A stretch of 64,000 nucleotides of DNA from an uncultured Gammaproteobacteria bacterium (GCA_964344965.1 CAYFPJ010000004.1:11532-75531); one strand, 5' to 3'; positions 20,262 through 47,257 are shown, numbered from the stretch's first letter. A program made the numbers and translations. The notes: generated by a model not told the origin, from the sequence alone.

Positions 20262-20368
20262 ACGTCATTGCGAGGAGTCTGAAAGAACGACGTGGCAATC
20301 TCAGTGTCTGTAAGTAAAAACGCGAGATTACCACGTCGTGTGGCTTCGCCCACCCCTCGCAATGACGA
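20262..20368. mobile_element. MITE-like element M1 with 15-bp terminal inverted repeats CGTCATTGCGAGGAG / CCTCGCAATGACG
   Basis: Homologous copies at 43314, 44727 and 47153; inserted between the riboswitch terminator and the first gene of the cluster. Confidence 0.8.
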
Positions 20369-20398
20369 AAATATTTACCAAAATCAGTCAATAAATTT

Positions 20399-21040
20399 AT
20401 GCAAAACACAAATTCAAAAATCCTTATCTTTGCGCTATTACTCCTACTTGCTGGAGCTGCTTGCAACCAAATAACAATACCAGAATCTCCATATGAATCT
20501 GATAAATCAGAAAAGATTGAAATAACAATAGATTCAGATTTGGAGATAGAACAAGTACCAAAAGTAGAAGAAGAGCTCCCGCCTGATGACACTCCCCCAC
20601 CAACTATAGTAGAAAAAAAAGTAGAAGAAAAACTGGAAATAGAAGATGGGTCCACGGCGCCAATAGATGTAGTCCCGCAGAAGCAGTCAAGGAATTATGA
20701 AAGTAAATACAAGAATAACACAGATAAAGAAAAAAGAGATGTGCTGATAACCTCATTTCTAGTACAAGACGAAGAGTATAATATAGAAATTCCCGAAGGT
20801 AGTACAGGCTACGATCTAATGCAGAGTGCTAGTACCCAATCAAATTTCACTTTCTCTGCCAAAAATTTTCCTGGTCTTGGTTATTTCATTGAAGAAATCA
20901 ATGGTCAAAAAAATGATCATATGAAAGGAATCTACTGGATTTATTATATCAACGGCGAAAAAGCAAAAGTAGGTATATCGAATTATTTATTAACTAATGG
21001 AGACATAATTGAATGGAAGTATGAAAATGAAAAATTTTAA
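20399..21040 (+). CDS. DUF4430 domain lipoprotein (transcobalamin beta-domain-like)
   Basis: Signal peptide with lipobox (LLLAGAAC); C-terminal DUF4430-like region YWIYYINGEKAKVGISNYLLTNGDIIEWKYE. Confidence 0.6.
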   Translation: MQNTNSKILIFALLLLLAGAACNQITIPESPYESDKSEKIEITIDSDLEIEQVPKVEEELPPDDTPPPTIVEKKVEEKLEIEDGSTAPIDVVPQKQSRNYESKYKNNTDKEKRDVLITSFLVQDEEYNIEIPEGSTGYDLMQSASTQSNFTFSAKNFPGLGYFIEEINGQKNDHMKGIYWIYYINGEKAKVGISNYLLTNGDIIEWKYENEKF

Positions 21041-24017
21041 ACCACTCCTGACAGGAATATTTATAATTGCAATACTAATCGCTCAACCCACTAGTGCAGA
21101 AGAGGTCAATATAGAGATGACTGCAAATAGTGAAGAAATTGTGGTGGAATCAATTGCAATAATATCTGAAGAAGAGATCATCCCAGATGATATTTTCATT
21201 ACAAATGAAAATATCACTGAAATGCAGAATGATGTTTCTGAAAATGAAACTAAATTTATCTTCGAAGAAACAATAGATGGTAATAATTTCGAAATAATTG
21301 CTGATGTCAGTAGTGGGAATAAAACAACTACATTCAGTATAGAAAACCTTTCAGATGCAGTTGCGATAGATTCTGTAGAACTCGAAGAAAAAAATGCTGA
21401 AGAAGATAACACAGGTACAGATATTCAAGATGAAAAAAATATAGAATCAAACATAGAAACCACCACCATCCACCTCCAACTAGAAACTATCGACGGTACC
21501 ATATTTGATAAAGAAGATTATGTGGTGGAAAGTTGTGAGTATGCTGATCAGTATGTCCTTACTGCTTGGTGCGCAATCCAGCAAGTAGCTGAAGAAGAAG
21601 GTTTGGGGCTGGATTATACAGATTATGGTGGTGATCTTGGTATATTTTTGGTATCAATCACATCAGATTTTGGTACACACAATTATCCAAGTTTCTTTGT
21701 AAATAATGAATGGGGACCCGGTCTTAGCAACTATCATTTACAAGAATATGATCATATTTTACTTGTCGGAGAGACATACCCCCTAAAACTAGATGTATCC
21801 ACGACTACGCCAGAAATAGGTACTACTACGACCATATCTGTCTATGAGGCAGGTTATGATGAGAATTGGAATGCTGGTTGGTTTTTGTCTGTGAGCAGTA
21901 CAATACTTGTCAATGGAGAAACCGTAGACAGTGACAGTGGAGTTTATCCGCTTGATGTTACCACTACTAGTGAATATCTGGTCCATGCTGTGAAAGATGG
22001 ATTTGTGGGGACTGGGGAGTTGACTATTAGTCCTTATAAAATAGAGGAAGCAGCTGCAGAGGTCATAAACTACCCCACCACCACCATCCACCTCCAACTA
22101 GAAACTATCGACGGTACCATATTTGATAAAGAAGATTATGTGGTGGAAAGTTGTGAGTATGCTGATCAGTATGTCCTTACTGCTTGGTGCGCAATCCAGC
22201 AAGTAGCTGAAGAAGAAGGTTTGGGGCTGGATTATACAGATTATGGTGGTGATCTTGGTATATTTTTGGTATCAATCACATCAGATTTTGGTACACACAA
22301 TTATCCAAGTTTCTTTGTAAATAATGAATGGGGACCCGGTCTTAGCAACTATCATTTACAAGAATATGATCATATTTTACTTGTCGGAGAGACATACCCC
22401 CTAAAACTAGATGTATCCACGACTACGCCAGAAATAGGTACTACTACGACCATATCTGTCTATGAGGCAGGTTATGATGAGAATTGGAATGCTGGTTGGT
22501 TTTTGTCTGTGAGCAGTACAATACTTGTCAATGGAGAAACCGTAGACAGTGACAGTGGAGTTTATCCGCTTGATGTTACCACTACTAGTGAATATCTGGT
22601 CCATGCTGTGAAAGATGGATTTGTGGGGACTGGGGAGTTGACTCTATCACCAATAACAACGACAGGAGATCAGACAGAAGAAGAAATAGAAGATGATCCT
22701 CCTGGCAATGGCGGGAGCGGAGGAGGCACTTCAAAACCAAATACAGAAACATCTCTAGAAATAATGATTAACAAAGCTTTTGAATACTTGTATAATGAAC
22801 AGCTGGAAGATGGCAGCTTTGAGATAACTCCATTTACAGACTGGGTGGCGATTGCCTTTGGTAAGTATGATTTTTCTGATGATCTCTTTACAACAGCAAA
22901 AAATAATTTAAAAACATTTCTGCAAGATGTATCTGAAAATGAATTAACACTTTTAACTGATTATGAACGGCACATCCTTGCCCGATCAGCACTTGATCTT
23001 GACGGGTATATTTACCAACAAAATATTTTAGATAAATTTGATGGTCAGCAATTTGGTAGTCCCGCTTTGATCAATGATGATATATTTGCTATTATTTCTT
23101 TGTGTGAAATTGGATACTGCATAAATGAGATAGAAACTGCGGCTGAAAATATCCGGAATGATTTTGTAGCTGATAATTTTTATGGTATTGATCTGACTGC
23201 TGCGGCCATTCGAGCTTTATTATTTATATATCCAAGCACAGATGAAGCTATTGCAAATGCCAAAGTACATCTCCAGAAAAACCAAGAATTAGATGGTGGA
23301 TTCAATAGTGAGGACGGAAGAGTAGATTCCACTAGCTGGGTAATGGATGCCATTGGTAAGATTGGCGATACTAGCTTTGACGGATGGACAAATAATGGTA
23401 AAACACCTTTGGATTACCTATCTGAAGTTCAAAATGACGATGGTAGTTTTGGAGAAACCAACAAAGTATGGTCTACAGCCTATGGTCTCATAGCTCTATC
23501 GCATGACTGGTCACTAGAGCCTGGCACAGAAAATAATCTTGTCAACGAAGATGAAACTACCAAAGAAAATAATTCTACAAATCAAAGTAGTGGATCAAAT
23601 ATTGTCATAAATACTACCACTACTACAGAAATAATGATTGACGAGAATCCTACTTCTACTCTTGATTTTATTATTGAGACCCCAAACAGCACTCCATCTT
23701 CAACTACCAAAGCAGAACAATCGGAAGAAAGCAATGATGAAGAAAAAAAAGGTAATGAAAATGTGAATAATAAGTCTACCAAAGACACAGTTTCTGTCGA
23801 AATAGTTCCTGAAGTGACACCAGTGAGGGCAATACTAGGTAAAAAAATTAATGACCAAGGTAATAGTATCGAAAAAGAAATAATAACTGATGAAAAAAAT
23901 GAAAAACAAAAAATAGTGCCAGTAAAAAATGAAAATAAATCATTCATAAATATAATCATGAACTTCATTTACAACATATTTTCTTCTGGTTTAAAATTTT
24001 TAAGTAATCTGATATAA
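21009..24017 (+). CDS. large secreted/anchored surface protein: signal peptide, acidic region, 2x (DUF4430-like + Ig-like) modules, Gly-rich linker, alpha/alpha-toroid (prenyltransferase/terpene-cyclase-like) domain, Thr/Ser-rich stalk, C-terminal TM anchor
   Basis: 1002-aa ORF; internal near-identical 206-aa tandem duplication; LEDGSFEITPFTDWVAIAFG... repeats resemble prenyltransferase alpha-alpha repeats. Confidence 0.7.
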   Translation: MNGSMKMKNFKPLLTGIFIIAILIAQPTSAEEVNIEMTANSEEIVVESIAIISEEEIIPDDIFITNENITEMQNDVSENETKFIFEETIDGNNFEIIADVSSGNKTTTFSIENLSDAVAIDSVELEEKNAEEDNTGTDIQDEKNIESNIETTTIHLQLETIDGTIFDKEDYVVESCEYADQYVLTAWCAIQQVAEEEGLGLDYTDYGGDLGIFLVSITSDFGTHNYPSFFVNNEWGPGLSNYHLQEYDHILLVGETYPLKLDVSTTTPEIGTTTTISVYEAGYDENWNAGWFLSVSSTILVNGETVDSDSGVYPLDVTTTSEYLVHAVKDGFVGTGELTISPYKIEEAAAEVINYPTTTIHLQLETIDGTIFDKEDYVVESCEYADQYVLTAWCAIQQVAEEEGLGLDYTDYGGDLGIFLVSITSDFGTHNYPSFFVNNEWGPGLSNYHLQEYDHILLVGETYPLKLDVSTTTPEIGTTTTISVYEAGYDENWNAGWFLSVSSTILVNGETVDSDSGVYPLDVTTTSEYLVHAVKDGFVGTGELTLSPITTTGDQTEEEIEDDPPGNGGSGGGTSKPNTETSLEIMINKAFEYLYNEQLEDGSFEITPFTDWVAIAFGKYDFSDDLFTTAKNNLKTFLQDVSENELTLLTDYERHILARSALDLDGYIYQQNILDKFDGQQFGSPALINDDIFAIISLCEIGYCINEIETAAENIRNDFVADNFYGIDLTAAAIRALLFIYPSTDEAIANAKVHLQKNQELDGGFNSEDGRVDSTSWVMDAIGKIGDTSFDGWTNNGKTPLDYLSEVQNDDGSFGETNKVWSTAYGLIALSHDWSLEPGTENNLVNEDETTKENNSTNQSSGSNIVINTTTTTEIMIDENPTSTLDFIIETPNSTPSSTTKAEQSEESNDEEKKGNENVNNKSTKDTVSVEIVPEVTPVRAILGKKINDQGNSIEKEIITDEKNEKQKIVPVKNENKSFINIIMNFIYNIFSSGLKFLSNLI
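21459..22650 (+). repeat. near-perfect tandem duplication (2 x 618 bp) inside the 21009-24017 CDS
   Basis: Copy 1 begins at 21459 and copy 2 at 22077; about 574 bp identical at nucleotide level before divergence at 22033 / 22651. Confidence 0.9.
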
Positions 24018-24415
24018 TGAATTACACTCCAAAAAAAGTCAATATGTATACAAAATTAGGTAAAATTGGAATGGTAATTACCACTGTACTAATCATTGGT
24101 GTTGGATGCAATAGTGTCAAAAAAATCACCTATATTTATAACGTAGAAATCTTCAAGTCAGACATGTATTCTGATACTCATAAGATAGAAATGGAAAAAG
24201 ATAACACAAATCTAGCAGTTCTAACAAAAAAAATTGATCCAGAAGCACAAACACAGTCTATAAACGGACAAGAAACAGTGACAAAGCTAGAAGGAGTAAT
24301 CTCTACTCTCAGCAAAGAATGGAAAATATATATAAATAGTACTAGTCCAGAATTCATTAATCTTGCCGACGTGACGGTCCAAGCTTCAGACCAGATTGAA
24401 TGGCGCTACGAATAA
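24017..24415 (+). CDS. small DUF4430-like protein
   Basis: 132-aa ORF with N-terminal TM/signal; C-terminal ...QASDQIEWRYE pattern like the DUF4430 proteins upstream. Confidence 0.5.
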   Translation: MNYTPKKVNMYTKLGKIGMVITTVLIIGVGCNSVKKITYIYNVEIFKSDMYSDTHKIEMEKDNTNLAVLTKKIDPEAQTQSINGQETVTKLEGVISTLSKEWKIYINSTSPEFINLADVTVQASDQIEWRYE

Positions 24416-24423
24416 AAAATATT

Positions 24424-24960
24424 ATGAAAGATAAAAATAAAGTGTTGATAGTCCTTTTATTAATTCTAATTGGAGCCTCAGCCAGATTATTCCCACACCC
24501 TGCCAACTTCGCTCCAATCGGAGCGATAGCAATATTCGGAGCACTGTACCTGCCGCGAAAAATTGCTCTTGTTGCTCCCCTACTAGCTATGTTTGCTAGT
24601 GACATCTTCATTGGATTTTATAGTTGGCAGATGATGGTGGCAGTGTATTTTGGGTTTGTAATCATGGGGATGATTGGTCTTCAAGTCAGGAAAAATAAAA
24701 AATTTAGTACTATTCTCGGCGGGACCTTACTAGGATCTTTCCTATTTTTCTTATTAACCAATGCTGCTGTTTGGGCTTTTGGGACCATGTATACTCTTGA
24801 TCTATCTGGACTAATGCAGAGTTATTACATGGCTATTCCGTTCTTTAGGAACAGCCTTGCCGGTGATTTATTTTATACTGCTGTACTAGTAGGTGCTTTT
24901 GAAGGATTGCAATATTATTATAGGATTCAGAATACAAAAAAAGAAATCTTGAATTCTTAA
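24424..24960 (+). CDS. polytopic membrane protein, putative ECF-transporter S-component-like (5-6 TM)
   Basis: ~178 aa, hydrophobic throughout; genomic association with DUF4430 genes and the riboswitch. Confidence 0.45.
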   Translation: MKDKNKVLIVLLLILIGASARLFPHPANFAPIGAIAIFGALYLPRKIALVAPLLAMFASDIFIGFYSWQMMVAVYFGFVIMGMIGLQVRKNKKFSTILGGTLLGSFLFFLLTNAAVWAFGTMYTLDLSGLMQSYYMAIPFFRNSLAGDLFYTAVLVGAFEGLQYYYRIQNTKKEILNS

Positions 24961-24980
24961 ATCATACAAATAATATTATA

Positions 24981-25011
24981 AAAAACTCTCTTAAATTAAG
25001 AGAGTTTTTTT
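24981..25011. terminator. bidirectional intrinsic terminator
   Basis: Hairpin ACTCTCTTAA-A-TTAAGAGAGT flanked by an A-run and a T-run. Confidence 0.7.
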
Positions 25012-25033
25012 GTCAGCAATTGTTGAAATATTC

Positions 25034-25228
25034 TTATTTTTCTTCTGGAGAAGAACCTTCTGGCAGATCACCTTCTTCAGGAGTTGCAGGAGGAAAAACA
25101 TCTGCATTAGGATCACTTCTTTCTCTTTGTGCTTCAGCCCCTATGCAATCACAACCTTCTTTCAAGGGCTTGCCACAAGTTGTACAACACTTTACCTCAC
25201 CCTCCTTACCACTTCCATATGACACCAT
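25034..25228 (-). CDS. hypothetical small Cys-rich protein (KCCTTCGKPLKEGCDC)
   Basis: 64-aa ORF at the 3' end of a minus-strand operon; overlapped by plus-strand ORFs, so uncertain. Confidence 0.3.
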   Translation of the reverse strand: MVSYGSGKEGEVKCCTTCGKPLKEGCDCIGAEAQRERSDPNADVFPPATPEEGDLPEGSSPEEK

Positions 25229-25316
25229 ATATTTTTTATTAATTATAATACTATTTTTAACATTGATCTAAGACTTAAAATTCTATGAACTATGAACCAA
25301 GAACTGTGCACTCAGA

Positions 25317-26747
25317 TCACCCAAAGATCTGATCCCCATCATCATAGGTAATATCACCAGAATCAGTCATGTATTTTGGGGCAGTTTTTTCAAATTCTGC
25401 CACCTTATCTTCTGGTGCAGACAATAGTTCAATAGGTAGACCAACAGGCGGCTCGGAAGTCTTGAGACTGGCTGTCTGAATCTGTGGAGTAGCAACATGA
25501 GACATTGGAAAATGCCAAATTGTAGCCAATTCTTCAATATTCAAGACATAGCGCTTCTTACCTATCCAAGGATTACGTTTTTTATAGGCTTTCATCATTA
25601 TATTTTTTCTAAAGTTATCCCTTCTTTCTTTCATGAAATATTCTGTCGATGTAATATATTTTGGCAAAAGAGCATTGGAGTAGGGATTGTTGAACTGATT
25701 CACTGCCCCCACCAAAGAATTTATTCCTCTAGATGGATTGTATACTTCTTTTTTGGCAACATAGACTGTCCTAATCTTGGTCTTAAATCCGAGCTTGCTG
25801 ATCTTATTTTCCATAGCTTCAAGCAACTTCTTCTTCCCAGGTGTTAAGTACAAAATTTGATTGGGAGGTCCATCATCCTTAGAAGAAGAAGTGGATCCAC
25901 CCTCTGTACGAATTCCTCCAGCCAACTGGGCACTGACCTCTTCAAAACTTCTGGCAAACTCATTTGTGAGAGGGTTATCAAAGACCCAACCAAGCATGCC
26001 TGGCTTACTCTTTTCTTTTTCACCAATAAGTTCTTTGATCTTCTTTATGCATCCCTTTTTCCAACGAAATTCCTGTAGAGGCTCGATAATAATTTGATAC
26101 CACATCTGCTCTCCTGGTCCAATCCTACTGAAACTCTCCAAAAAAGTACCCATAGGATCTTTCAAGACAGTATCTTTTGAGATGTTGTGTTCAAACTCTT
26201 GGTACATACGAATTGGATAGGCCTCATGCTGTGTCAAGACAAAATCAGCTGCCCACATCTTGTGAGTGTCACTTGGATACTTGTCTGGAATTCCTTCTGT
26301 ATAATCCTCTACCTCAGTAATTTCTGCTTCTGGATATTGAGCATAGACAGCTGCTTCGATCACATCCTGGTATTTATCAAGTGTGCGAATCAAAAACTGG
26401 ATATAACCCTCAATACTCACAATCTCAAAACTAAATTGGTTTTGATAAAATCCATGCCAATACTTCGTACCAATACTTGGTACCTCCATCACACTGAATA
26501 TGTGAGTAAATAGCTGCTCCACAGCTTTGGGGGTCTGTACATTCATCGGAGGAATATCTATAGCCAAAAGCACGTGTTTAAAATCTTTTTTTAAAATTTT
26601 CCTCTTGTAGGAATAGAGCTCATAAAAACCGGCGTACAACAAAAGATACACCAACACAGACCAACCTCCTGCTGCTATAAATCTATAAATTATTTCAAAA
26701 GTTGACTCGCTTGTTATGTAGTCAATGATGATATCCATAGCTGACAA
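25317..26747 (-). CDS. hypothetical N-terminally membrane-anchored protein
   Basis: 476-aa ORF with 2 N-terminal TM helices and a large soluble domain. Confidence 0.6.
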   Translation of the reverse strand: MSAMDIIIDYITSESTFEIIYRFIAAGGWSVLVYLLLYAGFYELYSYKRKILKKDFKHVLLAIDIPPMNVQTPKAVEQLFTHIFSVMEVPSIGTKYWHGFYQNQFSFEIVSIEGYIQFLIRTLDKYQDVIEAAVYAQYPEAEITEVEDYTEGIPDKYPSDTHKMWAADFVLTQHEAYPIRMYQEFEHNISKDTVLKDPMGTFLESFSRIGPGEQMWYQIIIEPLQEFRWKKGCIKKIKELIGEKEKSKPGMLGWVFDNPLTNEFARSFEEVSAQLAGGIRTEGGSTSSSKDDGPPNQILYLTPGKKKLLEAMENKISKLGFKTKIRTVYVAKKEVYNPSRGINSLVGAVNQFNNPYSNALLPKYITSTEYFMKERRDNFRKNIMMKAYKKRNPWIGKKRYVLNIEELATIWHFPMSHVATPQIQTASLKTSEPPVGLPIELLSAPEDKVAEFEKTAPKYMTDSGDITYDDGDQIFG

Positions 26748-26749
26748 AA

Positions 26750-26911
26750 TTATACTTCAAGTATTTTGTAAACTCCCAAGTATACAACAATCACAAAAAA
26801 GCCGGACCACCACCAACCAAGCTGGCCAGACTTGTATCCAGCAAAGAATGCAAGCAGACAGACAAAAGCAGCAATGAAAGAGATAAAATGTCTAATAAAT
26901 TCTTCAGACAT
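26750..26911 (-). CDS. hypothetical 53-aa small membrane protein (not in the ORF track)
   Basis: ATG at 26911 and stop at 26750, 3 nt before the start of the 25317-26747 gene; one TM helix plus a WWW motif. Confidence 0.4.
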   Translation of the reverse strand: MSEEFIRHFISFIAAFVCLLAFFAGYKSGQLGWWWSGFFVIVVYLGVYKILEV

Positions 26912-27129
26912 AATAAATATTTAACTAATGAATATAGGACTGATATTAAGTTTTACCTATTTTTGACCAAAAGAGAGCCAAAATATTAACTTATTTTTTA
27001 GACACAATTGTGTAAGTCCAAAGACGAGTTTCGGGGCTAAAAAATAAGTTAGTATTTTGGTGGGTTTGAAAAACTTGATATGAGTTCATAGTTTTAGAAG
27101 TATATCACAAAATCTACCTGGTAACTATC

Positions 27130-27492
27130 TCAAGAAGCAGAAACAGATGATAATAATTCTTTTACAGAATTTATATCTGCTTTTATTTTTTTTATTAATT
27201 CTCTGTCAGATTCAAACTTCTCAATCGAAGCAACCTGCTGGACAGGATCTATCTCCAGATAGTCACCATAAAAATCAGGCCCTTTATAATCAATCAAGTA
27301 AATTTCAACCTTCCAAACAGGATCTTCTCTCACCACCATTGAGCAAGGATATTTCTTTTTTTTAAAATGACACCAAGCAGCATATACACCTGAGCCAAAC
27401 TTTACTTCTTTTTTTGTACAATCCAAATTGGCCGTAGGAAATCCATAGACCTTACCCATTTTGTCTCCACCTATCACTATTCCACCAAACAT
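27130..27492 (-). CDS. riboflavin kinase domain protein (second paralog)
   Basis: GKVYGFPTANL motif; paralog of 13603-13953. Confidence 0.7.
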   Translation of the reverse strand: MFGGIVIGGDKMGKVYGFPTANLDCTKKEVKFGSGVYAAWCHFKKKKYPCSMVVREDPVWKVEIYLIDYKGPDFYGDYLEIDPVQQVASIEKFESDRELIKKIKADINSVKELLSSVSAS

Positions 27493-27652
27493 AATATAAA
27501 TTTAAAACTTGTGAACCCCTTCCTGGGCCAGAGAGCCCGAGGGCGTCAGGGTCAAAAGAAATGGAACTGTGGCAGGGCCACAAAGTGTTTATTTCACTAT
27601 AGATATTTTATTCTAGTATCTGTGTAATCTATTTTAATCTGTGTAATCAATG

Positions 27653-29383: not shown

Positions 29384-29508
29384 AAACTAAAGCAAATTAG
29401 GCAGAGTACGCAGAATAGGCCAAATAAGCAAAAGATGTAGTGGCATTAATTTCGTATCCTTAATCTGCATACTCTGCTTATTCTGCTTTGACTATCCAAG
29501 TTTAATAA

Positions 29509-29652
29509 ATAAAAGTAAATTTGGTTTAAGTAAGACTTCATCGTGCCATCCCCGCAGCAAGCTGCGGGGTATTGGCATAAAATTCTATTTCAACCAATGT
29601 GAGTCTTCACTTTTTCGATGCAAGCATCGAGGAATAAAACCACTTAAAGATT
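29509..29652 (+). repeat. ~145-bp interspersed repeat, copy B (most divergent, ~8 substitutions)
   Basis: Sequence identity to copies A, C, D and E. Confidence 0.9.
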
Positions 29653-29686
29653 TAATGATATCTAACATCTCTGACAAATCTAAAAA

Positions 29687-32402: not shown

Positions 32403-32500
32403 TTCCCCTTTTGGAGGAGGTCGGGAAAGGTTCGTACCAACATAGAGGATATTGATTTACGACAACGAACCCCCTCTAACTCCACCTAAAAGGGGGAGAA
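32403..32500. repeat. G/C-run palindromic element E3
   Basis: TTCCCCTTTTGGAGG ... stem GGTTCGT/ACGAACC ... CCACCTAAAAGGGGGAG. Confidence 0.75.
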
Positions 32501-32520
32501 TTTTATTTATATCGACAAAT

Positions 32521-37281: not shown

Positions 37282-37570
37282 GTGTATTAAATAATTTTGT
37301 GTAGCCTGTCGGCTGAAACTTTATAGAAGACAGATTCCAAATGACTAACTGTACTGTTAGTTTTGACATATATCAATACGCTTTTCCTAAAATATAAAAT
37401 TTGGTTGAAAGTCTTTAAACTACATGTGAAGCGCCTAATTTTTTATCTATTTCATCCAAAAAATTTTCCCATCCAAGATTACGTAAAGAATATAATATTT
37501 GCTCTAGTTCTTCTAGTGTGTCTATGTCTTGATTATATTCCAACAAAATATTCTTTAATCTAGACATAAA

Positions 37571-37715
37571 ATAAAAGTAAATTTGGTTTAAGTAAGACTT
37601 CATCGGGCCATCCCCGCAGCAAGCTGCGGGGTATTGGCAGAAAATCTTATTTCAACCAATGTTAGTTTTCACTTTTTCGATGCAAGCATCGAGGAATAAA
37701 ACCGCTTAAAGATTT
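37571..37715 (+). repeat. ~145-bp interspersed repeat, copy C
   Basis: Identical to copy D; the 3' end supplies the last 17 codons and stop of gene 37662-38204. Confidence 0.9.
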
Positions 37716-38204
37716 AAGTTCCAATTCTATTTCTTTGCCAATTCTTCCATAAAAAATCTCTTTTGATTTTGGCATTCTCTTGGTTTTTCTGTTTGTGACG
37801 TTAGTTACGATATCTCCATGGGCAGACGTATTGACAGCCATCATGTTTCTTAAAAAAAATTTTCTCTCCTCTTCAGATAAAGAATTATTCCAACCGCCCT
37901 GATTCAAAAAATTAGAAAAGGCTCTAACACAATCAAATCCGTAATGCAATTCTACCCATAAAAAAAACAGGTGTTGATCAGTCGGGCTTCCTCTAGAAAC
38001 CCTAAAACTTTCTGTAATAAAAGAAATAAACGATTGTCTGGTAATCCGATCCCCTTCCCGATACAAAACAATATCATCCTTACTCTGCGGAGCATTCTCC
38101 GGATCAAAATCTTCTGGTGTCAAAAAATAACGTTCAGGTTTACCTGTGTCTCGTGCATCTGTTTGAGTGACATCTGGTCTACGACCTGGTTTTGGGTCTG
38201 TCAT
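37662..38204 (-). CDS. hypothetical protein
   Basis: 180-aa ORF whose C-terminus is encoded by repeat copy C. Confidence 0.5.
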   Translation of the reverse strand: MTDPKPGRRPDVTQTDARDTGKPERYFLTPEDFDPENAPQSKDDIVLYREGDRITRQSFISFITESFRVSRGSPTDQHLFFLWVELHYGFDCVRAFSNFLNQGGWNNSLSEEERKFFLRNMMAVNTSAHGDIVTNVTNRKTKRMPKSKEIFYGRIGKEIELELKSLSGFIPRCLHRKSEN

Positions 38205-39655: not shown

Positions 39656-40048
39656 CTAAGAGACAACTGACAACATTATTTTCTTTCTAACTTTTTCTTG
39701 TAGAAAACTAATAGTTGTGCGAGCTTTTTTTGTGTCAATTTCATCCTCTTTATCCATAACTAATTCCCTGAGATCAATAAAATCTTCACCAGGATCCTCG
39801 TCTTGAGCTCTACCACGCCCTTCTTCCGGAATCAAGGGGTCTGCACCATTGGCATGGATATATTTTCTTTTACTGTTTAGAAAAATGACATTTGAGCCGT
39901 CATCTGGATAAACCTCTTCCAAGTTATCAGAATTCCTAGATCCTGACAAAAAACCATGTGGATCAAAGTCATTTATATGACTAGTAGACACTTCTTTCAA
40001 TAAAAGACCAAGCTCACCCTCTTCCCACAACGGCCAATTCTCCCGCAA
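39656..40048 (-). CDS. hypothetical acidic protein
   Basis: 130-aa ORF with no ATG near the 5' end; would need a TTG start. Confidence 0.35.
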   Translation of the reverse strand: MRENWPLWEEGELGLLLKEVSTSHINDFDPHGFLSGSRNSDNLEEVYPDDGSNVIFLNSKRKYIHANGADPLIPEEGRGRAQDEDPGEDFIDLRELVMDKEDEIDTKKARTTISFLQEKVRKKIMLSVVS

Positions 40049-40055
40049 AAAATCA

Positions 40056-40200
40056 ATAAAAGTAAATTTGGTTTAAGTAAGACTTCATCGGGCCATCCCC
40101 GCAGCAAGCTGCGGGGTATTGGCAGAAAATCTTATTTCAACCAATGTTAGTTTTCACTTTTTCGATGCAAGCATCGAGGAATAAAACCGCTTAAAGATTT
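40056..40200 (+). repeat. ~145-bp interspersed repeat, copy D
   Basis: Identical to copy C; supplies the stop codon of gene 40191-40718. Confidence 0.9.
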
Positions 40201-40718
40201 AAATCTGTTATACTTTTTGTTATTTCTTCCCCCAATATTTCAGCCAAAATTTCCATTTTCCCTGCTGCAATTTCTTGTCGAACCTCGTAAGATTGCTTGT
40301 TCAATTCCACCAACTTATCATCAACATCATAGATAGAAGGTGTCCAAGATTCTCCCTCTCGATATACAGAATAATTTATTTCATGCAATTGTAAATAATT
40401 ATTCAACGCTCTTTTTTCTTCGTCAGTCAAATTTGGATACCTCTTTTTGAATTCTTCAAATATTATTTTTGAAAATGCTATAGTGAGTTCATACTGATAC
40501 CACTCTCTATCTAAATCACAATCTCCATGTTCCAAATCATCAGGAAAAAGACTGAGGGGATATTTTTTGGCATCTTTTTTTGTAGCCAAAGCATCATCCC
40601 TACCCAGAGTGTCTCTGTAAGTCTCTAACTTTCTTTTTTCTTTGATGAGTCTTTCTAATTGTTGTGTAATTTGCCTTCCAGCCTCTGCACTTGGCCACTT
40701 ACCTTGCAGTATTCCCAT
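40191..40718 (-). CDS. hypothetical protein
   Basis: 175-aa ORF. Confidence 0.5.
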   Translation of the reverse strand: MGILQGKWPSAEAGRQITQQLERLIKEKRKLETYRDTLGRDDALATKKDAKKYPLSLFPDDLEHGDCDLDREWYQYELTIAFSKIIFEEFKKRYPNLTDEEKRALNNYLQLHEINYSVYREGESWTPSIYDVDDKLVELNKQSYEVRQEIAAGKMEILAEILGEEITKSITDLNL

Positions 40719-40731
40719 ATTTTATTTATTT

Positions 40732-41586
40732 TCAGATATTTAGATTTTTATTTTCTGCATATTTCTCCATTGTGTCCCGCATCCCTACATGCACTTCCCG
40801 CATTTCAATCCCAATACTAGCCAAATTTTCTGAAGCAAGAAAATTATTAGATCTACCTTTTGTGGCAAGACCTTGTTTTACCAAGTCATCATTGGTGATC
40901 CATTCATTGGTATGAGTAGGATCCACAAGTTCTTCATAGAGATCAATAATCTCACGATGCTTGAGAATGCCAGGATTGGTGACGTGAAAAATACCTTCTG
41001 CTTTTTTTTCTAGCAGCTGATAAAACACATCTACCATGTCATCGACAATCGTCACACTATTTTCCACATCAATCACCTTTGGAAAGCTAGCTAGCTTGTC
41101 GATCATGTTATTTGGTGATGGGATGTGATCAATAGGCATGCGAATGCGAGCAATCCCCACTTTTGGCAAAGTAGACAAGACAAGATCAGCCGCCCACTTG
41201 GCACGAGAGTAGGTCACTTCAGTTGGATTACCCATGTCTCCTTCTCGCCACCTCTTATCCTCATGTGGTGAGTCACCGTAGAAGATACAACCAGATCCAA
41301 TATGAAGAAGGTAAATATTTCGCTCCTGACAAGCCTCGGCAATAGTGATTGGTAGCTTGGTATTGCCAAGCATGGTTTCCAGAGGATGATCCTCACACCA
41401 GTCTACATTTGGCTTGCCACGTACTCCTGCGGCGTTCAAAACTGCATCTGGCTGATGCTCGTCAATAAGTTTTAGTACATCTTCTTTGGAGTTAATTCTT
41501 TCAGCAGACAAAACTGAATCTGACCAATCCTTGTGACAACGCTTACCTACATATCCAGCTCCGATAATTAATATCTTCATAAACAA
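40732..41586 (-). CDS. NAD(P)-dependent sugar-nucleotide reductase/epimerase, RmlD-like (dTDP-4-dehydrorhamnose reductase family)
   Basis: N-terminal Rossmann motif ILIIGAGYVG; short-chain epimerase/RmlD-like overall; adjacent to rmlB. Confidence 0.6.
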   Translation of the reverse strand: MFMKILIIGAGYVGKRCHKDWSDSVLSAERINSKEDVLKLIDEHQPDAVLNAAGVRGKPNVDWCEDHPLETMLGNTKLPITIAEACQERNIYLLHIGSGCIFYGDSPHEDKRWREGDMGNPTEVTYSRAKWAADLVLSTLPKVGIARIRMPIDHIPSPNNMIDKLASFPKVIDVENSVTIVDDMVDVFYQLLEKKAEGIFHVTNPGILKHREIIDLYEELVDPTHTNEWITNDDLVKQGLATKGRSNNFLASENLASIGIEMREVHVGMRDTMEKYAENKNLNI

Positions 41587-41616
41587 GTTTGTAAATTAAA
41601 AATTTCAAATTAAAAA

Positions 41617-42621
41617 TTATTCACGTCCGTACCACTCCTCATAATAATCCTGATACGCTCCACTCTTACACCTCTCTACCCATTCTTGATTATTTTGATA
41701 CCATTCGATCATCTCTCTTAGAGCGTATTCAAACTTTACCTGAGGTTTCCAACCAAGTTCATTTTTTGCTTTAGAAAAATTAATAGCATAACGACGATCA
41801 TGACCTGGACGATCTTTGACAAAATCAATACTGCTTTCATCTTTATCCATCAACATCAAAAGAGTCTTGGTCAAATCAAGGTTTGTCATTTCACTATCTC
41901 CACCAAGACAATATGTCTCCCCTATTTTTCCATTCTTAATAATTACCTCAATCCCACGAGCGTGATCATCTACATGGATCCAGTCACGAACCTGGAGACC
42001 GTCACCATACACTGGAACTTTCTTTCCTTCCATTAGGTTGGAAATAAAAAGTGGTATCAACTTCTCTGGAAACATGTACGGACCATAGTTGTTGGAACAG
42101 TTTGATATAGTAACCTGCAATCCATAAGTATGAAAATAGGATCTTACCAGATGATCAGATGCTGCCTTGGATGCAGAGTAAGGACTACGAGGATCATAAG
42201 ATGTAGATTCATCAAAGGCAGGATCCTCTGGCTTCAAAGCTCCAAAAACTTCATCTGTCGAAACATGATGAAAACGCTTCTGATATTCTCTAGCAGCATC
42301 TAAAAGAACTTGTGTACCGAGAACATTGGTACGAACGAATGCACTAGGATCTAGGATAGAACGATCGACATGGGATTCTGCTGCAAAATGTACAACAACA
42401 TCGACATCTTTCACTGTCGCAAAGACCAAATCACGATCACAGATATCACCCTTTACAAAAGAATAATTTTGATTGTCTTTTAAATCTTTTAAATTTTCAA
42501 GATTACCGGCATAAGTGAGTAAATCAAAATTAACAATCTCATCTTCTGAATTGCTCTCCATCCAATAACGAATAAAATTTGATCCAATAAACCCAGCACC
42601 GCCAGTTACCAATAGACGCAT
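41617..42621 (-). CDS. rmlB: dTDP-glucose 4,6-dehydratase
   Basis: MRLLVTGGAGFIGSNF...; TDEV and YSASK catalytic motifs. Confidence 0.85.
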   Translation of the reverse strand: MRLLVTGGAGFIGSNFIRYWMESNSEDEIVNFDLLTYAGNLENLKDLKDNQNYSFVKGDICDRDLVFATVKDVDVVVHFAAESHVDRSILDPSAFVRTNVLGTQVLLDAAREYQKRFHHVSTDEVFGALKPEDPAFDESTSYDPRSPYSASKAASDHLVRSYFHTYGLQVTISNCSNNYGPYMFPEKLIPLFISNLMEGKKVPVYGDGLQVRDWIHVDDHARGIEVIIKNGKIGETYCLGGDSEMTNLDLTKTLLMLMDKDESSIDFVKDRPGHDRRYAINFSKAKNELGWKPQVKFEYALREMIEWYQNNQEWVERCKSGAYQDYYEEWYGRE

Positions 42622-42722
42622 AAACGACAAATTAAATTAAATCACTATATTATTTACTAAATAAAGTTCGTGGTACTGGTGACGGGTAGGTCCCAGCACC
42701 GCCAGTTACCAACAATTTCATA

Positions 42723-43106
42723 TTATTTTACAATATACTCGTAGCTGTCATCTGTACGCAAAGGAAAATTACTAAAAACCACCACTATTGCTGACTCCTC
42801 TCCGACATTGGTAGTTGAATGAGCTACTAGGTTGGGGATATGAATGACATCTCTTCCCGGTACCAACTTCATGTCTTTTCTTTTTTTGGAAACGACGTGC
42901 TCCATTTTTAGAGAGACATCACCCTTTTCTGCATAAATCATTATCCTATTTTCTTTGTGATAATGATTGCCGGTAGTAACTCCAGGATCAATAACCAAAC
43001 GAGACATATAGATGTCTCCCACTTTTACACTAGACAAAACTCTACCAGGCTTACTAGCATCATCTTTCATCTTGAAATGAGTGATAAATTCTTCTTTTCT
43101 GTTCAT
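42723..43106 (-). CDS. cupin-domain protein, possible dTDP-sugar epimerase/isomerase (RmlC/FdtA-like)
   Basis: 127-aa beta-rich ORF with cupin-like HYHKEN...H motifs, in a sugar-nucleotide gene context. Confidence 0.45.
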   Translation of the reverse strand: MNRKEEFITHFKMKDDASKPGRVLSSVKVGDIYMSRLVIDPGVTTGNHYHKENRIMIYAEKGDVSLKMEHVVSKKRKDMKLVPGRDVIHIPNLVAHSTTNVGEESAIVVVFSNFPLRTDDSYEYIVK

Positions 43107-43127
43107 AAAGCCACATTGTTTAATCCC

Positions 43128-43282
43128 GACCTCGTTCCTCGGTACGGGACGAGAGATCGGTTTAACCTGCCTGCCGGTCTTCGACTATGAAGCTCAGACT
43201 GAATAGCAGGCAGGTTCCCCGGGGCTTGCCCCGGAAAAATTGGTCAAGGACTTGCCCTGGAGTTCATACCATTGATTTATTT
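43128..43282 (+). repeat. ~150-nt structured element, family F copy 1 (three hairpins; shared 30-nt module TCCCGACCTCGTTCCTCGGTACGGGACGAG)
   Basis: Homologous to the reverse complement of 63790-63965. Confidence 0.7.
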
Positions 43283-43313
43283 TGAATTACGAAAAACTCT
43301 AATCTCGTCATTG

Positions 43314-43412
43314 CGAGGAGTGCGCGAAGCAAGCACGACGTGGCAATCTAGACTTTGGAAGTGTAGATTGCTTCGTCATCCCGTACTTCGTCGGGATTCC
43401 TCGCAATGACGA
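43314..43412. mobile_element. MITE-like element M2 (TIR TCGTCATTGCGAGGAG)
   Basis: Same TIRs as M1, M3 and M4. Confidence 0.8.
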
Positions 43413-43438
43413 AAATGCAATTTAACGAGTAGTGTGAA

Positions 43439-43582
43439 ATAAAAGTAAATTTGGTTTAAGTAAGACTTCATCGGGCCATCCCCGCAGCAAGCTGCGGGGT
43501 ATTGGCAGAAAATCTTATTTCAACCAATGTTAGTTTTCACTTTTTCGATGCAAGCATCGAGGAATAAAACCGCTTAAAGATT
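43439..43582 (+). repeat. ~145-bp interspersed repeat, copy E
   Basis: Identity to copies A, C and D. Confidence 0.9.
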
Positions 43583-43709
43583 AAAATTGATATTTTCCTT
43601 ATTTTAGCAAAATATGAATTTTCCGCATATCTATTTTCTAAAAATATTTAGCTAAATTAAGCCAAACGAGTCTAATTCACACTACTCGTAATTTAGTAAT
43701 TCAAAATAA

Positions 43710-44246
43710 TTATTTATGTAAAAAATGATGATGAACAAGAGCCCAAGCCGCCATAGTCTGTCCGTCCCAGATATCATTACGACGAATCATTTCATCTACT
43801 TCATCTGGCCTGCGATACATTACTTCTATATCTTCTGTGTCATCAAGGTCCATTTCCTGTTGTTCACTCAAGTGAGCTATGAAGACATGGGTAGTGTCCT
43901 TGGTATATCCATTGGCAGGTTGAAATTCTCCAACCTTGATAAATTCATCAGCCAAATATCCTGTTTCTTCTGCTAGCTCCTCTTTGGCAGCCTCTAAAGC
44001 TGTCTGACCATCTTTCAATCCTCCTCCTGGAAATTCAATACTCTCCTTATTAGTCAGGTATCTAGATTGCAAAATCAAAACCAAACGACCATCTGGTAAT
44101 ACTGGAACCACGATAGACATCCCACTAAGCTCTGAATAATAATAGTCACCTATATCACCGTTTGGTAATTCATAAGTGTCATGCTTGTAAGTATACCAAG
44201 GATTCTCGTGCAGTGTTTCTTCTGATAATTTTTTGAGGTGTTTCAT
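43710..44246 (-). CDS. NUDIX hydrolase (ADP-ribose pyrophosphatase-like)
   Basis: Nudix box GGGLKDGQTALEAAKEELAEETGY. Confidence 0.8.
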   Translation of the reverse strand: MKHLKKLSEETLHENPWYTYKHDTYELPNGDIGDYYYSELSGMSIVVPVLPDGRLVLILQSRYLTNKESIEFPGGGLKDGQTALEAAKEELAEETGYLADEFIKVGEFQPANGYTKDTTHVFIAHLSEQQEMDLDDTEDIEVMYRRPDEVDEMIRRNDIWDGQTMAAWALVHHHFLHK

Positions 44247-44295
44247 AAGTCATTATAATATCAGTAAAATCTATATAAATCAGTCTGAATTAATG

Positions 44296-44697
44296 CTAAA
44301 ACAATTTGGCAACCTCTTCTACAGAAGTATCACCAGCATTATTAATAATAGAATGGATATTTCCTCCCCCATCACCCTTCCAACGAGGTAAGATATGAAC
44401 ATGTAGATGTGACACCTCTTGTCCACCTGCCTCTCCATGATTCCAACCAACGTTGAATCCATCTGGATGAAGAGTGGATTCTAGTTTTTCCATCACTTTC
44501 TCAATAGATAAAAAAAGATCTTTGGAAAGTTCTTTATTCAGGTCAAACAAATTTTCTGCATGTACTTTTGGCACCAGTACTGTATGACCTTTGGCACGAG
44601 GGTTTATATCCAAAAAGGCGAGAAAGTGTGCATCCTCATACACAGTATGATTTGGTATTTCTCCTCCTACAATTTTACAAAAAATACAGTCTTTCAT
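44296..44697 (-). CDS. HIT family hydrolase
   Basis: Histidine triad HLHVHILPR. Confidence 0.85.
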   Translation of the reverse strand: MKDCIFCKIVGGEIPNHTVYEDAHFLAFLDINPRAKGHTVLVPKVHAENLFDLNKELSKDLFLSIEKVMEKLESTLHPDGFNVGWNHGEAGGQEVSHLHVHILPRWKGDGGGNIHSIINNAGDTSVEEVAKLF

Positions 44698-44726
44698 AGG
44701 TTATAATAAATTCTTTAAAACATAAA

Positions 44727-44837
44727 ACTATCATTTTCGTCATTGCGAGGAATGAAACGCAGTGGAATGACGAAGCAATCTACACTTTGGACGTGTAGAT
44801 TGCCACGTCGCTCCTTCGTCGCTCCTCGCAATGACGA
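44727..44837. mobile_element. MITE-like element M3
   Basis: TIRs TCGTCATTGCGAGGA / CCTCGCAATGACGA; internal palindrome GCAATCTACACTTTGGACGTGTAGATTGC. Confidence 0.8.
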
Positions 44838-44898
44838 ATTTTAGATATTTATAGTACAAATTAACTTATACTTACTCTGCAATATTATCAATATTTAG

Positions 44899-47127
44899 CT
44901 ATTTTTTCAAGTCAATATTCCAAATCAGAAAGTCACCCAGCTGCTCAGGTGTGGAGCTGGAAAATTCTGACATTTTTGCTTCCTTTTCCTCATCTACATC
45001 TTTTATTGGCAACACAACCCAACACCTCTCATGTCCAGTGATATTAGATATCTCAGATAAGACACTTTGTTCTGGATTTTCTATCATTTCAGATAATAAT
45101 GAAACTCTCTTCTCTTGGGCAAATTGGTAATCAATAGGAAATCCGCCACCGACAATTTTTTGAGATGACCTCGACTCAAGAGCAAGAAGAATCCAAGTAT
45201 TTGCTAAAACACACTGACTATCTTCATTTTTATGCTTCCAAACATAATTGGCCGCATTATATTCATCTAGACTGACAACTCTCATATCAGGACCAGTCGC
45301 AAATGATGTCGTGCCCACCCAAGAAAATAATACTACCAATGACAAAATAACCACATTCCTATACCTTGCTCTCATTTTCTCAAAATTAATCTTACTCAAA
45401 CCAAAAACAAAATAAACAAATATGACTATAGAAAAAATTGGATCAAGACGGCGGACAAATGATCTGTCTCCCTCGAGGAAAAACCAACCTATCAAATATC
45501 CAGCCACAATACTCGTAGCAAAAAGATTAAAAATCAACCAAACTATTTTTTTCTTATATAATGATCTCCAGAGTCCAAATATTGCTAAGCCAAAAATAAT
45601 TGAAACACCAAGCATCATTGGCCAACGCCAGTCAGTGAAGAAGCTCGATACAAAAGCATAATCTGGAGTATGATTGATAAGAATATTGCCACTAAGCATA
45701 TCATGAGGGCGAATAGCACTAGCATAGTACCAGCCACTAAACTGGCCGAGCATCTGCTTAATCTGGTTCACAAAGTCCCAAGATTGAGGAAGGTGGCTAG
45801 CTCTACTGACTATTTCTATAATTGGAAAAAATAAGATGGCAAAAATTGTTGAGAATGAGATAGTTATTTTTCTAAAAATTTTATTGCCACGAAAATCTAT
45901 ATTCTTGAAAAATAAAGAAATTAAAATCACAAACCAAATCAAAATGAAATACAGTGTGTACCCAAACAGCATGGAGACTGCAAAAAATAATGCCAAATTC
46001 CTTCCCCTCTTACCCCCACTATCCAAATATTGCAACCACAGCATCAACGTGAATAAGAAGAATAATAATCCCAAACTAACAGGCAGAGCAAGGCTCCCAA
46101 GAGCTTGTAGGGTAAATGGGATTAGTGATAAGAATGAAAAAAACAAACCAGCCCGCCACGAACCAAACATGATTCGACCAATTCGTAATAAAACTATCGG
46201 CAAAACTATAGACCATAAGAAAACCATCATCCACTTGTTGACTGCCAACAAATCAATATCTAGGGTGGCAGATAAAAGCACGCCAGATCCCCAGAGATGA
46301 CCATAAAGATACTTGTGTGGCACGACCAAAGCTTCTGGCACATCTATGCCTGCTACTTCACGCCAGCTAGCTTCATCCCCAAACAAAACTGGCAAAACAG
46401 ACTGACCACCCAACAATTGATTCTCGACAGCCACATGTCTCCATACATCCCCGCCCCAAGGCATCTCATGAGACAATGGTAAATAAAGATGCATGACTAG
46501 AGACTGAACAATAATCAAAAATAACAAAGTCTTGATCTTGTGCTTTGAACAAACTAATATCCCTAGCACGAAAATAGACAAAAAAGTAAGAGGTAAAACA
46601 AGTTTATCAATACTTTGCCAAGGAGAATTCAAAACTTCTGTGCCATTTGATTTGAGAAGTAAGAAAAATATCAATGAAGCAAGTAGTAAAAAAATTCCCA
46701 ACAAAATATTATTTTTCTTAAACATTACAAAGCCAAATTTCTTTTTTCCATTTTCAGAAAGTCCTCTTTTTCTTTTTTTCTTAACAATCAAAAAAAGCAG
46801 ATAGCTAAATATTGCTAAAGTTAAATATACTGACCACAAAAGCATGGGAGTCAGCTTGTACCAGACGACCAAGACAGAGCTGAACAAACCTAGCAAAGTG
46901 AAAACTGTAAAAAATGAAAATACCACCGTCATCCAATCCTTATACTTCATCCCAAAAATACGATGCAAAACACAACGCCAATATTCTCCTACAAACCATA
47001 GATAGACGACAAATAGCAAAATTCCAGCAAATTTGCTATGCCAAACAGTCAGTTGGAGATATAACAAAAATAGCAGAACTGCCAACTTACCAACTTCTAT
47101 CAATTTTATCCTATACAAAAATTTCAC
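44899..47127 (-). CDS. large polytopic membrane protein (~16 TM plus C-terminal soluble domain), GT-C-like glycosyltransferase/polymerase candidate
   Basis: 742-aa ORF; paralogous to 47346-49556 (SPWQSIDK vs SPWQAVNH, GGDVWRHVA vs GFDAFIHRA). Confidence 0.6.
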   Translation of the reverse strand: MKFLYRIKLIEVGKLAVLLFLLYLQLTVWHSKFAGILLFVVYLWFVGEYWRCVLHRIFGMKYKDWMTVVFSFFTVFTLLGLFSSVLVVWYKLTPMLLWSVYLTLAIFSYLLFLIVKKKRKRGLSENGKKKFGFVMFKKNNILLGIFLLLASLIFFLLLKSNGTEVLNSPWQSIDKLVLPLTFLSIFVLGILVCSKHKIKTLLFLIIVQSLVMHLYLPLSHEMPWGGDVWRHVAVENQLLGGQSVLPVLFGDEASWREVAGIDVPEALVVPHKYLYGHLWGSGVLLSATLDIDLLAVNKWMMVFLWSIVLPIVLLRIGRIMFGSWRAGLFFSFLSLIPFTLQALGSLALPVSLGLLFFLFTLMLWLQYLDSGGKRGRNLALFFAVSMLFGYTLYFILIWFVILISLFFKNIDFRGNKIFRKITISFSTIFAILFFPIIEIVSRASHLPQSWDFVNQIKQMLGQFSGWYYASAIRPHDMLSGNILINHTPDYAFVSSFFTDWRWPMMLGVSIIFGLAIFGLWRSLYKKKIVWLIFNLFATSIVAGYLIGWFFLEGDRSFVRRLDPIFSIVIFVYFVFGLSKINFEKMRARYRNVVILSLVVLFSWVGTTSFATGPDMRVVSLDEYNAANYVWKHKNEDSQCVLANTWILLALESRSSQKIVGGGFPIDYQFAQEKRVSLLSEMIENPEQSVLSEISNITGHERCWVVLPIKDVDEEKEAKMSEFSSSTPEQLGDFLIWNIDLKK

Positions 47128-47152
47128 AATATTTTCGATCTAAAAAAACGAT

Positions 47153-47257
47153 TCGTCATTGCGAGGAGCGACGAAGGAGCGACGCGGCAATCTCATTGTG
47201 TGTAGGTAAAACTTTGAGATTGCCACGTCGTTCTTTCAGACTCCTCGCAATGACGAA
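47153..47257. mobile_element. MITE-like element M4 (inverted relative to M1)
   Basis: Sits in the divergent promoter region between the two paralogous membrane-protein genes. Confidence 0.8.

Follow-up and report, generated by a model that had tools for sequence, protein, structure and literature searches.

The closest described relatives of the elements reported here are the CGTC-tagged REPs, a class of repeats defined by Di Nocera, De Gregorio & Rocco (2013, BMC Genomics 14:522, PMC3733652). Their units carry an unpaired CGTC tag, a stem opening with A-T pairs and a CCA-like tail; they occur in five phyla, mostly as inverted dimers between co-directional or convergent genes, were found without an associated (tyrosine) transposase, and include Neisseria dRS3 and Rickettsia RPE-4 and RPE-6 (PMC3733652). 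The dRS3 repeat was since extended to a 28-nt sequence, NTS, CGTCATTCCCGCGMAVGCGGGAATCYRG (Chenal et al. 2025, Nat Commun 16:2388, PMC11893778); SsnA, a 94-aa nuclease consisting of a single GIY-YIG domain, binds and cuts this repeat solely in single-stranded form and ignores RNA. The C after the palindrome is the most critical base for SsnA binding and the GTC before it matters most for cutting, and Ssn homologues are widespread, their genes typically being bracketed by such repeats (PMC11893778). Here we analyze a 64,000-nucleotide stretch from an uncultured Gammaproteobacteria bacterium (GCA_964344965.1 CAYFPJ010000004.1:11532-75531; hereafter the window) containing four inverted-repeat elements, M1 to M4, that an earlier note had labeled miniature inverted-repeat transposable elements (MITEs). 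Each element is an inverted pair of ~40-nt half-units, and the half-unit represents a diverged branch within the CGTC-tagged REP superfamily, which includes NTS/dRS3 and the 'Ssn-related motif' (SRM).

The four elements are real, far beyond chance. With up to two mismatches allowed, the 15-mer TCGTCATTGCGAGGA matches the window eight times, against 0.05 matches expected from shuffles, and the 13-nt core CGTCATTGCGAGG (reverse complement CCTCGCAATGACG) is exact in all eight arms. The ends consist of (T)TCGTCATTGCGAGGA and its reverse complement, and they delimit four elements of 101-108 bp, all intergenic. An nhmmer profile built from 236 half-units, all from other genomes, recovered the same eight half-units in the window and no others. 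These counts bear out the description of a dispersed inverted-repeat family with four copies in both orientations, while several details needed revision. The boundaries previously given for M1 stand, whereas the M2 start at 43314 fell 9 nt inside the element and the M3 start at 44727 fell 10 nt outside it. The 15-bp terminal inverted repeats (TIRs), described as exact, are so in six of the eight 15-mers, the two M1 arms having one mismatch each. Similarly, the palindromic core GCAATCTACACTTTGGACGTGTAGATTGC ascribed to all copies is exact in M3 and differs at two positions in M2, but is unrelated to the loops of M1 and M4, which have only GCAATCT...AGATTGC in common. The elements and their half-units are listed below in window coordinates, with folding energies given for RNA on the two strands.

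M1, 20262-20368, no strand: two unlike CGTC-tagged half-units joined tail-to-tail in inverted orientation; each strand folds as a long hairpin, -52.8 / -59.5 kcal/mol, z about -9.
M1 left half-unit, 20263-20302, plus strand: CGTCATTGCGAGG-AGTCTGAAAGAACGACGTG-GCAATCTCA; nhmmer E=1e-8.
M1 right half-unit, 20325-20369, minus strand: inner motif mutated to GTAATC; nhmmer E=2e-4.
M2, 43305-43412, no strand: inverted half-unit pair; -63.8 / -63.2 kcal/mol, z -10.5 / -11.7.
M2 left half-unit, 43304-43350, plus strand: nhmmer E=2.8e-8.
M2 right half-unit, 43364-43413, minus strand: nhmmer E=8.1e-8.
M3, 44737-44837, no strand: inverted half-unit pair; -57.4 / -63.5 kcal/mol.
M3 left half-unit, 44736-44782, plus strand: nhmmer E=2.4e-8.
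M3 right half-unit, 44796-44838, minus strand: nhmmer E=9.5e-10; 42/43 identical to the M4 left half.
M4, 47153-47256, no strand: inverted half-unit pair; -70.1 / -66.5 kcal/mol, z about -12.4.
M4 left half-unit, 47152-47194, plus strand: of the M3 right-half type; nhmmer E=8.2e-10.
M4 right half-unit, 47216-47257, minus strand: of the M1 left-half type; nhmmer E=5.5e-9.

All copies follow one half-unit plan of ~40 nt, CGTC-ATTGC-GAGG-[variable segment]-CG(AA/TG/CG)-GCAAT-C(C/T). The variable segment spans 0-30 nt (6-34 nt in the unit statistics) and in many copies contains a short GC-rich mini-hairpin with a G-N-A type loop; the shortest form of the unit, CGTCATTGCGAGGCACGAAGCAATCCCC, is 28 nt long. 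Joined in pairs, the units give an element of nested inverted repeats, with outer arms CGTCATTGCGAGG / CCTCGCAATGACG and inner arms GACG(TG/AA/CG)GCAATCT / AGATTGC..CGTC, in which the variable segments separate outer from inner arms and the central loop varies too. Conservation is not confined to the termini, since the internal motif CGAAGCAATC is conserved across phyla as strongly as the ends. The CGTC tag stands at the unit end in 8/8 window units (and in all 337 heads from other loci, by construction). Across 271 unique units, the position after GCAAT is C in 96% and is followed by a pyrimidine in 95%; tail position 2 is divided between C (49%) and T (46%), tail position 3 between C (48%) and A (35%), and the window tails read CTC or CTA. 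Hairpin folds of the four elements, on both strands, reach -53 to -70 kcal/mol as RNA, with z scores of -9 to -12.

Comparison among the window copies revealed that they are mosaics of independently reassorting ~40-nt half-units. The left half of M1 is the reverse complement of the right half of M4 over 41/41 nt, and the left half of M4 is the reverse complement of the right half of M3 over 42/43 nt; the cores of M2 and M3 are 81% alike in opposite orientation, with partner halves that differ. Because M1, M3 and M4 share halves and not wholes, the unit shared between copies is the ~40-nt half rather than the ~100-bp element. The earlier statement that M4 is the inverse of M1 is accurate for that one half and fails for the loops and the other halves. 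Half-units also form tandem arrays, at loci L039, L040, L065 and L008. Two Mucilaginibacter species have an element at one orthologous site; its loop has diverged between them, but the conserved blocks to the left and right still match at 25/25 positions each.

Set against NTS, CGTCATT[CCCGCG-MAV-GCGGG]AATCYRG, the window unit, CGTCATT[GCGAGG...CGAAGC]AATCYNN, is alike in head and tail, has a minimal form that is also 28 nt long, and likewise occurs in hundreds of dispersed intergenic copies. The SRM head HGTCWY is present as CGTCAT in 8/8 window units, as are the C and Y of the tail, and the full 6-nt SRM tail RNCYNB is found in five of the eight. The two differ at the center, where NTS is compact, with a stem of 8 bp and a loop of 3 nt, whereas the window unit has a 5-bp stem, a purine-rich internal loop and the variable segment, and in that units of the window type are joined tail-to-tail into ~100-bp long hairpins. 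Similar correspondence was observed with the CGTC-tagged REPs as a class, including the CGTC tag, a stem opening with A-T/T-A (ATTGC...GCAAT), a tail approaching the C-C/T-A type, frequent inverted dimers that are often heterodimers, intergenic positions with mainly co-directional or convergent neighbors, presence in several phyla and lack of an associated transposase. The phylum range is wider here, however, extending to Chloroflexota, Omnitrophota, Patescibacteria, Margulisiibacteriota and others. For this comparison ATTGCGAGG was set beside the four CGTC families of Di Nocera et al. by description. The ATTGCGAGG pairs are a variant of this known CGTC-REP/Ssn-related kind of repeat that the published SRM pattern misses. 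Full-text literature searches with repeat DNA words and peptide translations produced only primer and blood-group noise.

Further copies are abundant, and the family extends well beyond the source genome. A scan of 596 Gb, comprising one genome per species, for the pattern CGTCATTGCGAGG-N60-90-CCTCGCAATGACG returned at least 120 loci across roughly ten phyla, against a chance expectation of ~0.004 matches for 26 fixed bases. The loci lie in Bacteroidota (Mucilaginibacter, Pedobacter, Tannerella and others), in Alpha-, Beta- and Gammaproteobacteria (Bradyrhizobium, Rhodopseudomonas, Thioalkalivibrio, Legionellales, Rickettsiaceae, Coxiellaceae), and in Chloroflexota, Omnitrophota, Margulisiibacteriota, Melainabacteria/Vampirovibrionia, Patescibacteria (Falkowbacteria), Hydrogenedentota, Planctomycetota and Clostridia. 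Megaplasmids of cultured Novosphingobium, Methylosinus, Methylocystis, Calothrix and Legionella carry copies, as do four stretches of three viral contigs. The IMG/VR viral contigs L006, L007 and L008 hold several ATTGCGAGG elements together with unannotated open reading frames (ORFs) resembling phage structural proteins, and their half-unit tandem arrays, with a 41-46-nt period, lie on one side of complete elements.

Whereas the earlier note had looked to an IS630/Tc1 or IS200-like transposase as the cognate enzyme, the protein that recurs next to these elements belongs to the Ssn family of GIY-YIG nucleases and measures ~95 aa. When the 1152 ORFs within 500 nt of element ends were clustered, GIY-YIG was the only recurrent nuclease family. 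Three of the ~120 loci found by DNA pattern (L039, L067 and L076) encode a GIY-YIG protein of ~95 aa (Pfam PF01541, E 1e-13 to 1e-16), with ATTGCGAGG elements no more than 35 nt from its gene and, in L039 and L076, on both sides of it. The L067 protein shares 48% identity with the N. gonorrhoeae SsnA orthologue (E 5e-32) and has the same length. In that orthologue, which is 94 aa long and whose gene lies amid NTS copies, the published catalytic positions are occupied by Y6, Y17 and E64, and the associated proteins carry the same three residues at matching aligned positions. The GIY-YIG protein next to the elements has no family of its own in NCBIfam and no structure of its own in the PDB.

The association was also recovered starting from the protein. 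A homologue search yielded at least 8000 relatives at E<=1e-10, and 3/3 homologues that were looked up (P0008, P0053 and P0107) have CGTCATTGCGAG units, with every CGTCATTGCGAG head within +/-1.5-2 kb located in intergenic DNA abutting the gene. The repeat-flanked ssn loci are L039, L067 and L076 together with L143, L144 and L152-L159, and the repeat-ssn-repeat layout for ATTGCGAGG units was observed at six independent loci. A viral-contig homologue has canonical NTS on its flanks, and the repeats around a Rhizobium homologue are of a third variant, CGTCATCCCAGGG...CCCTGGGATCC. The breadth of the elements across phyla matches the wide spread of Ssn.

Loci L152-L159 come from eight assemblies encoding an identical Ssn protein. 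In seven of these, the gap from the Ssn gene to its downstream neighbor ranges from 129 to 562 nt through differing numbers of units, whereas in the eighth, L156, that gap contains a run of N. The copy-number junctions fall within shared unit sequence, as expected for recombination or copying at the level of the unit. At ~1790-2350 of these loci, the arrangement goes from one degenerate half-unit to several alternating units in a BIME-like cluster, in which the head-to-head spacers TAAAACCTAATACACA and TAAAAATAATATAGAAA are conserved.

In our assessment, the elements are probably CGTC-REP/Ssn-type repeat pairs that propagate at the unit level together with an Ssn nuclease, and not by DDE cut-and-paste. 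The unit, when in single-stranded DNA, would be the recognition site of a small single-domain GIY-YIG endonuclease (Ssn), and the cognate enzyme would read its head, stem and tail in that form. The repeat family would then spread and stay uniform together with the nuclease, moving unit by unit through recombination or gene conversion between units, possibly with Ssn-initiated copying, and no TIR-bounded element would be cut and pasted by a DDE transposase. An Ssn enzyme, presumably encoded in the source genome, would bind or cut the ATTGCGAGG variant and drive its spread. The window copies are non-autonomous members, and their sole likely local effect would be a very stable hairpin or cruciform in the DNA and in transcripts that cross them.

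Several observations weigh against this account. The published degenerate SRM pattern gives no match in the window, compared with seven in a 1.7-kb gonococcal control and five in a Rhizobium control; it misses the variant because the unit center differs. Folded as single-stranded DNA, a single unit is weakly structured (median -4.6 kcal/mol; 131/200 units are predicted to form the ATTGC/GCAAT stem), and the variable segments show no clear overall advantage over shuffles in self-folding (median z -0.44, with z below -2 in 26% of units). The paired long hairpin is predicted to be far stabler and would bury the site in a duplex, and SsnA leaves duplex DNA uncut. The 5-bp stem falls short of the 8-9 bp stem and 4-5 nt loop of CGTC-tagged REPs, and the window pairs are tail-to-tail, whereas those of Di Nocera et al. 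are mostly head-to-head, with tail-to-tail pairs rare. No GIY-YIG gene was found among the ORFs of the 64-kb window, and three plasmid-borne Ssn homologues, from Planktothrix, Spirosoma and Novosphingobium (pNL2), have no flanking repeat within 700 nt. Finally, the Ssn association comes from six loci only.

How do these properties compare with those of a non-autonomous DDE transposon? A classical MITE would be a deletion derivative of a DDE-type insertion sequence (e.g. IS630/Tc1), with a transposase acting in trans on the 13-15-bp TIRs. Like the bacterial MITEs Correia/NEMIS, RUP and Nezha, the elements are ~100 bp long, non-coding, multi-copy and intergenic, with TIRs and the capacity to form a hairpin in transcripts; they occur in both orientations, and Pfam annotation of the window ORFs confirmed that no transposase is present (neither DDE nor Y1/HUH), in keeping with the non-autonomous character the earlier note had proposed. 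The only recombinase in the window is a tyrosine integrase (1741-2553) adjoining type I restriction-modification specificity genes. Yet target-site duplications of 2-9 bp at the boundaries of 130 non-redundant copies were no commoner than in shuffled flank pairings, and the flanks of M1-M4 show no consistent duplication. Within ~1 Mb of loci, these ends were not seen to enclose any longer element or a parent insertion sequence, and no transposase family recurred among the 1152 clustered ORFs. A MITE also leaves unaccounted for the 98-100% match of one half between window copies that differ in the loop and the other half, the conservation of internal CGAAGCAATC, and the half-unit tandem arrays (L039, L065, L008), and we therefore regard this origin as very unlikely and the MITE label as unsuitable. 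Flanking sequence extends the palindrome in a few copies, by at least 7 perfect pairs in five, and does not extend it in most. A search for empty sites by way of the 736-aa neighbor, in a metagenome scan, gave two relatives only, at 44-52% identity; one of them (L129) is syntenic and without any element, but is too divergent to define junctions. Exact-protein matches of window genes came from the same population only, with identical elements.

The REPIN/BIME-RAYT systems, reportedly described by Bertels and Rainey (2011) and Ton-Hoang et al. (2012), offer another parallel. In both cases a short palindromic pair in inverted orientation makes one long hairpin, units are heterodimeric, target-site duplications are lacking, units cluster in alternating orientation by the cognate gene, and a single-copy nuclease gene is bracketed by repeats. 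If the elements were REPINs proper, that is, hairpin-forming REP pairs mobilized by a single-copy RAYT (a Y1/HUH tyrosine transposase), their intergenic placement, avoidance of divergent regions and BIME-like heterodimers would also be accounted for. The tag, however, is CGTC rather than the RAYT-recognized GTAG (GT[A/G]G), the partner is a GIY-YIG nuclease rather than a Y1/HUH transposase, and the ATTGCGAGG sequence is the same across ~ten phyla, whereas REPINs are lineage-specific. The RAYT family is absent from the recurrent neighbors, although no Y1 profile search was made on all ORFs; over ~1 Mb of loci, GIY-YIG recurs beside the elements and no second nuclease or transposase family does. 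Di Nocera et al. found no tyrosine transposase with CGTC repeats either (PMC3733652), and a RAYT-driven origin is highly improbable. A looser form of the parallel, in which ATTGCGAGG would be a non-autonomous element copied or moved by a GIY-YIG Ssn as the counterpart of the REPIN-RAYT pair, its code constrained such that 13+10 nt are kept across ~ten phyla and phage genomes, strikes us as conceivable but doubtful.

Selection acting on RNA was considered as well, with the elements serving as stabilizing hairpins, attenuators or terminators, or small RNAs that regulate flanking genes. Consistent with such a role, the hairpins are very stable (z -9 to -12), and three of the four window copies lie in likely transcription units or 5′ leaders. 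Across loci, and using rough ORF-based classes, 60 copies lie between co-directional genes, 20 between convergent and 5 between divergent genes, where the intergenic space of these loci would predict ~15 divergent, a distribution that agrees with that of the CGTC-tagged REPs. The family prefers positions downstream of genes, co-directional copies lying at a median of 45 nt from the upstream gene's stop codon. A further 28 copies fall within ORFs that were called naively at 110 aa or more; many such ORFs are probably spurious in GC-rich genomes. Folding is nevertheless symmetric, with near-equal energies on both strands, and elements occur in both orientations. No U-tract follows the elements and no terminator-like call was made on those of the window, promoter-like matches on elements were at background frequency only, and Rfam returned no match at gathering thresholds, with permissive E-values giving only generic long hairpins (plant microRNA precursors) far below threshold. 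An RNA-level function would also leave unexplained both the exact conservation of primary sequence across phyla and the association with a nuclease that acts on DNA and not on RNA, and we judge it quite unlikely.

The remaining alternative is a passive palindromic repeat, spread and homogenized solely by host recombination and replication slippage at hairpins, whose proximity to ssn reflects hitch-hiking or an insertion preference. Copy-number junctions inside shared units, as for unequal recombination, fit this, and so do the half-unit tandem arrays, the mosaic halves of the window copies and the existence of Ssn homologues without repeats. What it does not explain is the identity of 13+10 nt from Patescibacteria to Proteobacteria, the coincidence of conserved positions with those that SsnA reads in NTS, and the bracketing of ssn by repeats on both sides in several unrelated lineages. 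On these grounds a purely passive origin appears unlikely, and unit-level propagation together with an Ssn nuclease remains our preferred explanation.

Collectively, these results provide the CGTC-tagged REPs, described in 2013 without a dedicated enzyme, with a candidate partner at the level of a protein family. They also indicate that the Ssn repeat family is wider than reported, with a variant that evades the published pattern yet spans many phyla, megaplasmids and phage contigs. Ssn homologues located beside ATTGCGAGG units are candidates for new single-stranded DNA cleavage specificity, in a family whose enzymes are under development as single-stranded DNA tools. For annotation, the elements matter in that their translations give spurious short ORFs and that they break metagenome assemblies.

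Within the window, the previously proposed placement of the copies in 5′ untranslated or promoter regions applies to two of the four. M1 lies 304 nt past ORF 19248-19958 and 31 nt upstream of the DUF4430 gene (20399-21040), and M4 separates the divergent genes for a 742-aa protein (start 47127, minus) and a 736-aa protein (start 47346, plus), a placement atypical for the family. M2 and M3, on the other hand, lie between co-directional minus-strand genes: M2 between a 127-aa gene (42723-43106) and a NUDIX gene (43710-44246), and M3 between the 742-aa gene, whose stop is 62 nt away, and a HIT gene, whose start follows after 40 nt.

The window contains further repeats of other kinds. D1, unrelated to the ATTGCGAGG elements, occurs in five copies (8391-8558, 29507-29674, 37569-37736, 40054-40221 and 43437-43604), all on the plus strand whatever the orientation of the neighbors, with the last beginning 25 nt right of M2. 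Its sharply bounded ~150-nt core is identical at nearly every position in the five copies, and over the 168-nt repeat window the copies show 88-95% identity to the reference copy. D1 contains internal hairpins CCCCGCAGCAAGCTGCGGGG and CGATGCAAGCATCG; Rfam gave no family at the gathering threshold anywhere in the window, and a permissive search with the 43437-43604 copy gave none. Same-population ENA contigs end at D1 repeats. A third short repeat, AACCCCCTCTA(A/G)CTCC(A/C)CCTAAAAGGGGGAG, is intergenic and present in both orientations at 564-602, 32468-32519, 58791-58842 and 58872-58910, two of its copies forming an inverted pair just downstream of clpB. The 45-nt sequence TTTAATCCCGACCTCGTTCCTCGGTACGGGACGAGAGATCGGTTT occurs at 43119-43163 and, inverted and 91% identical, 20.8 kb away at 63922-63966; one copy lies ~140 nt from M2. 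A perfect 30-nt inverted repeat, AAACAATCCGGATATCCAGATAATCCAGAT, with a 21-nt spacer (51488-51517 / 51539-51568), is situated between a glycosyltransferase gene (50294-51493) and ORF 51524-51859 and could be an operator-like or recombination site.

Other features concern coding sequence. An exact 300-nt duplicate (21459-21758 / 22077-22376, 618 nt apart) lies inside ORF 21009-24017, downstream of the DUF4430 gene; this ORF encodes 1002 aa here and 792 aa in a same-population ENA contig, which suggests a ~630-nt tandem duplication, in frame, and either polymorphic or reflecting an assembly difference. Same-population assemblies also differ around clpB (58242-58907 and 61647-62270, compared with L160-L162), where a 119-aa ORF (61717-62076) is missing from contig k127_57528 and another contig has an 87-aa ORF call downstream of clpB. 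Finally, at 1741-7246, the tyrosine recombinase gene sits beside a Fic gene and an N6 DNA methylase gene (4067-6103), and the adjacent type I HsdS ORFs 6043-6558 and 6485-7246 share a 28-nt repeat (6139-6166 / 6719-6746), a layout that resembles a phase-variable type I restriction-modification shufflon.

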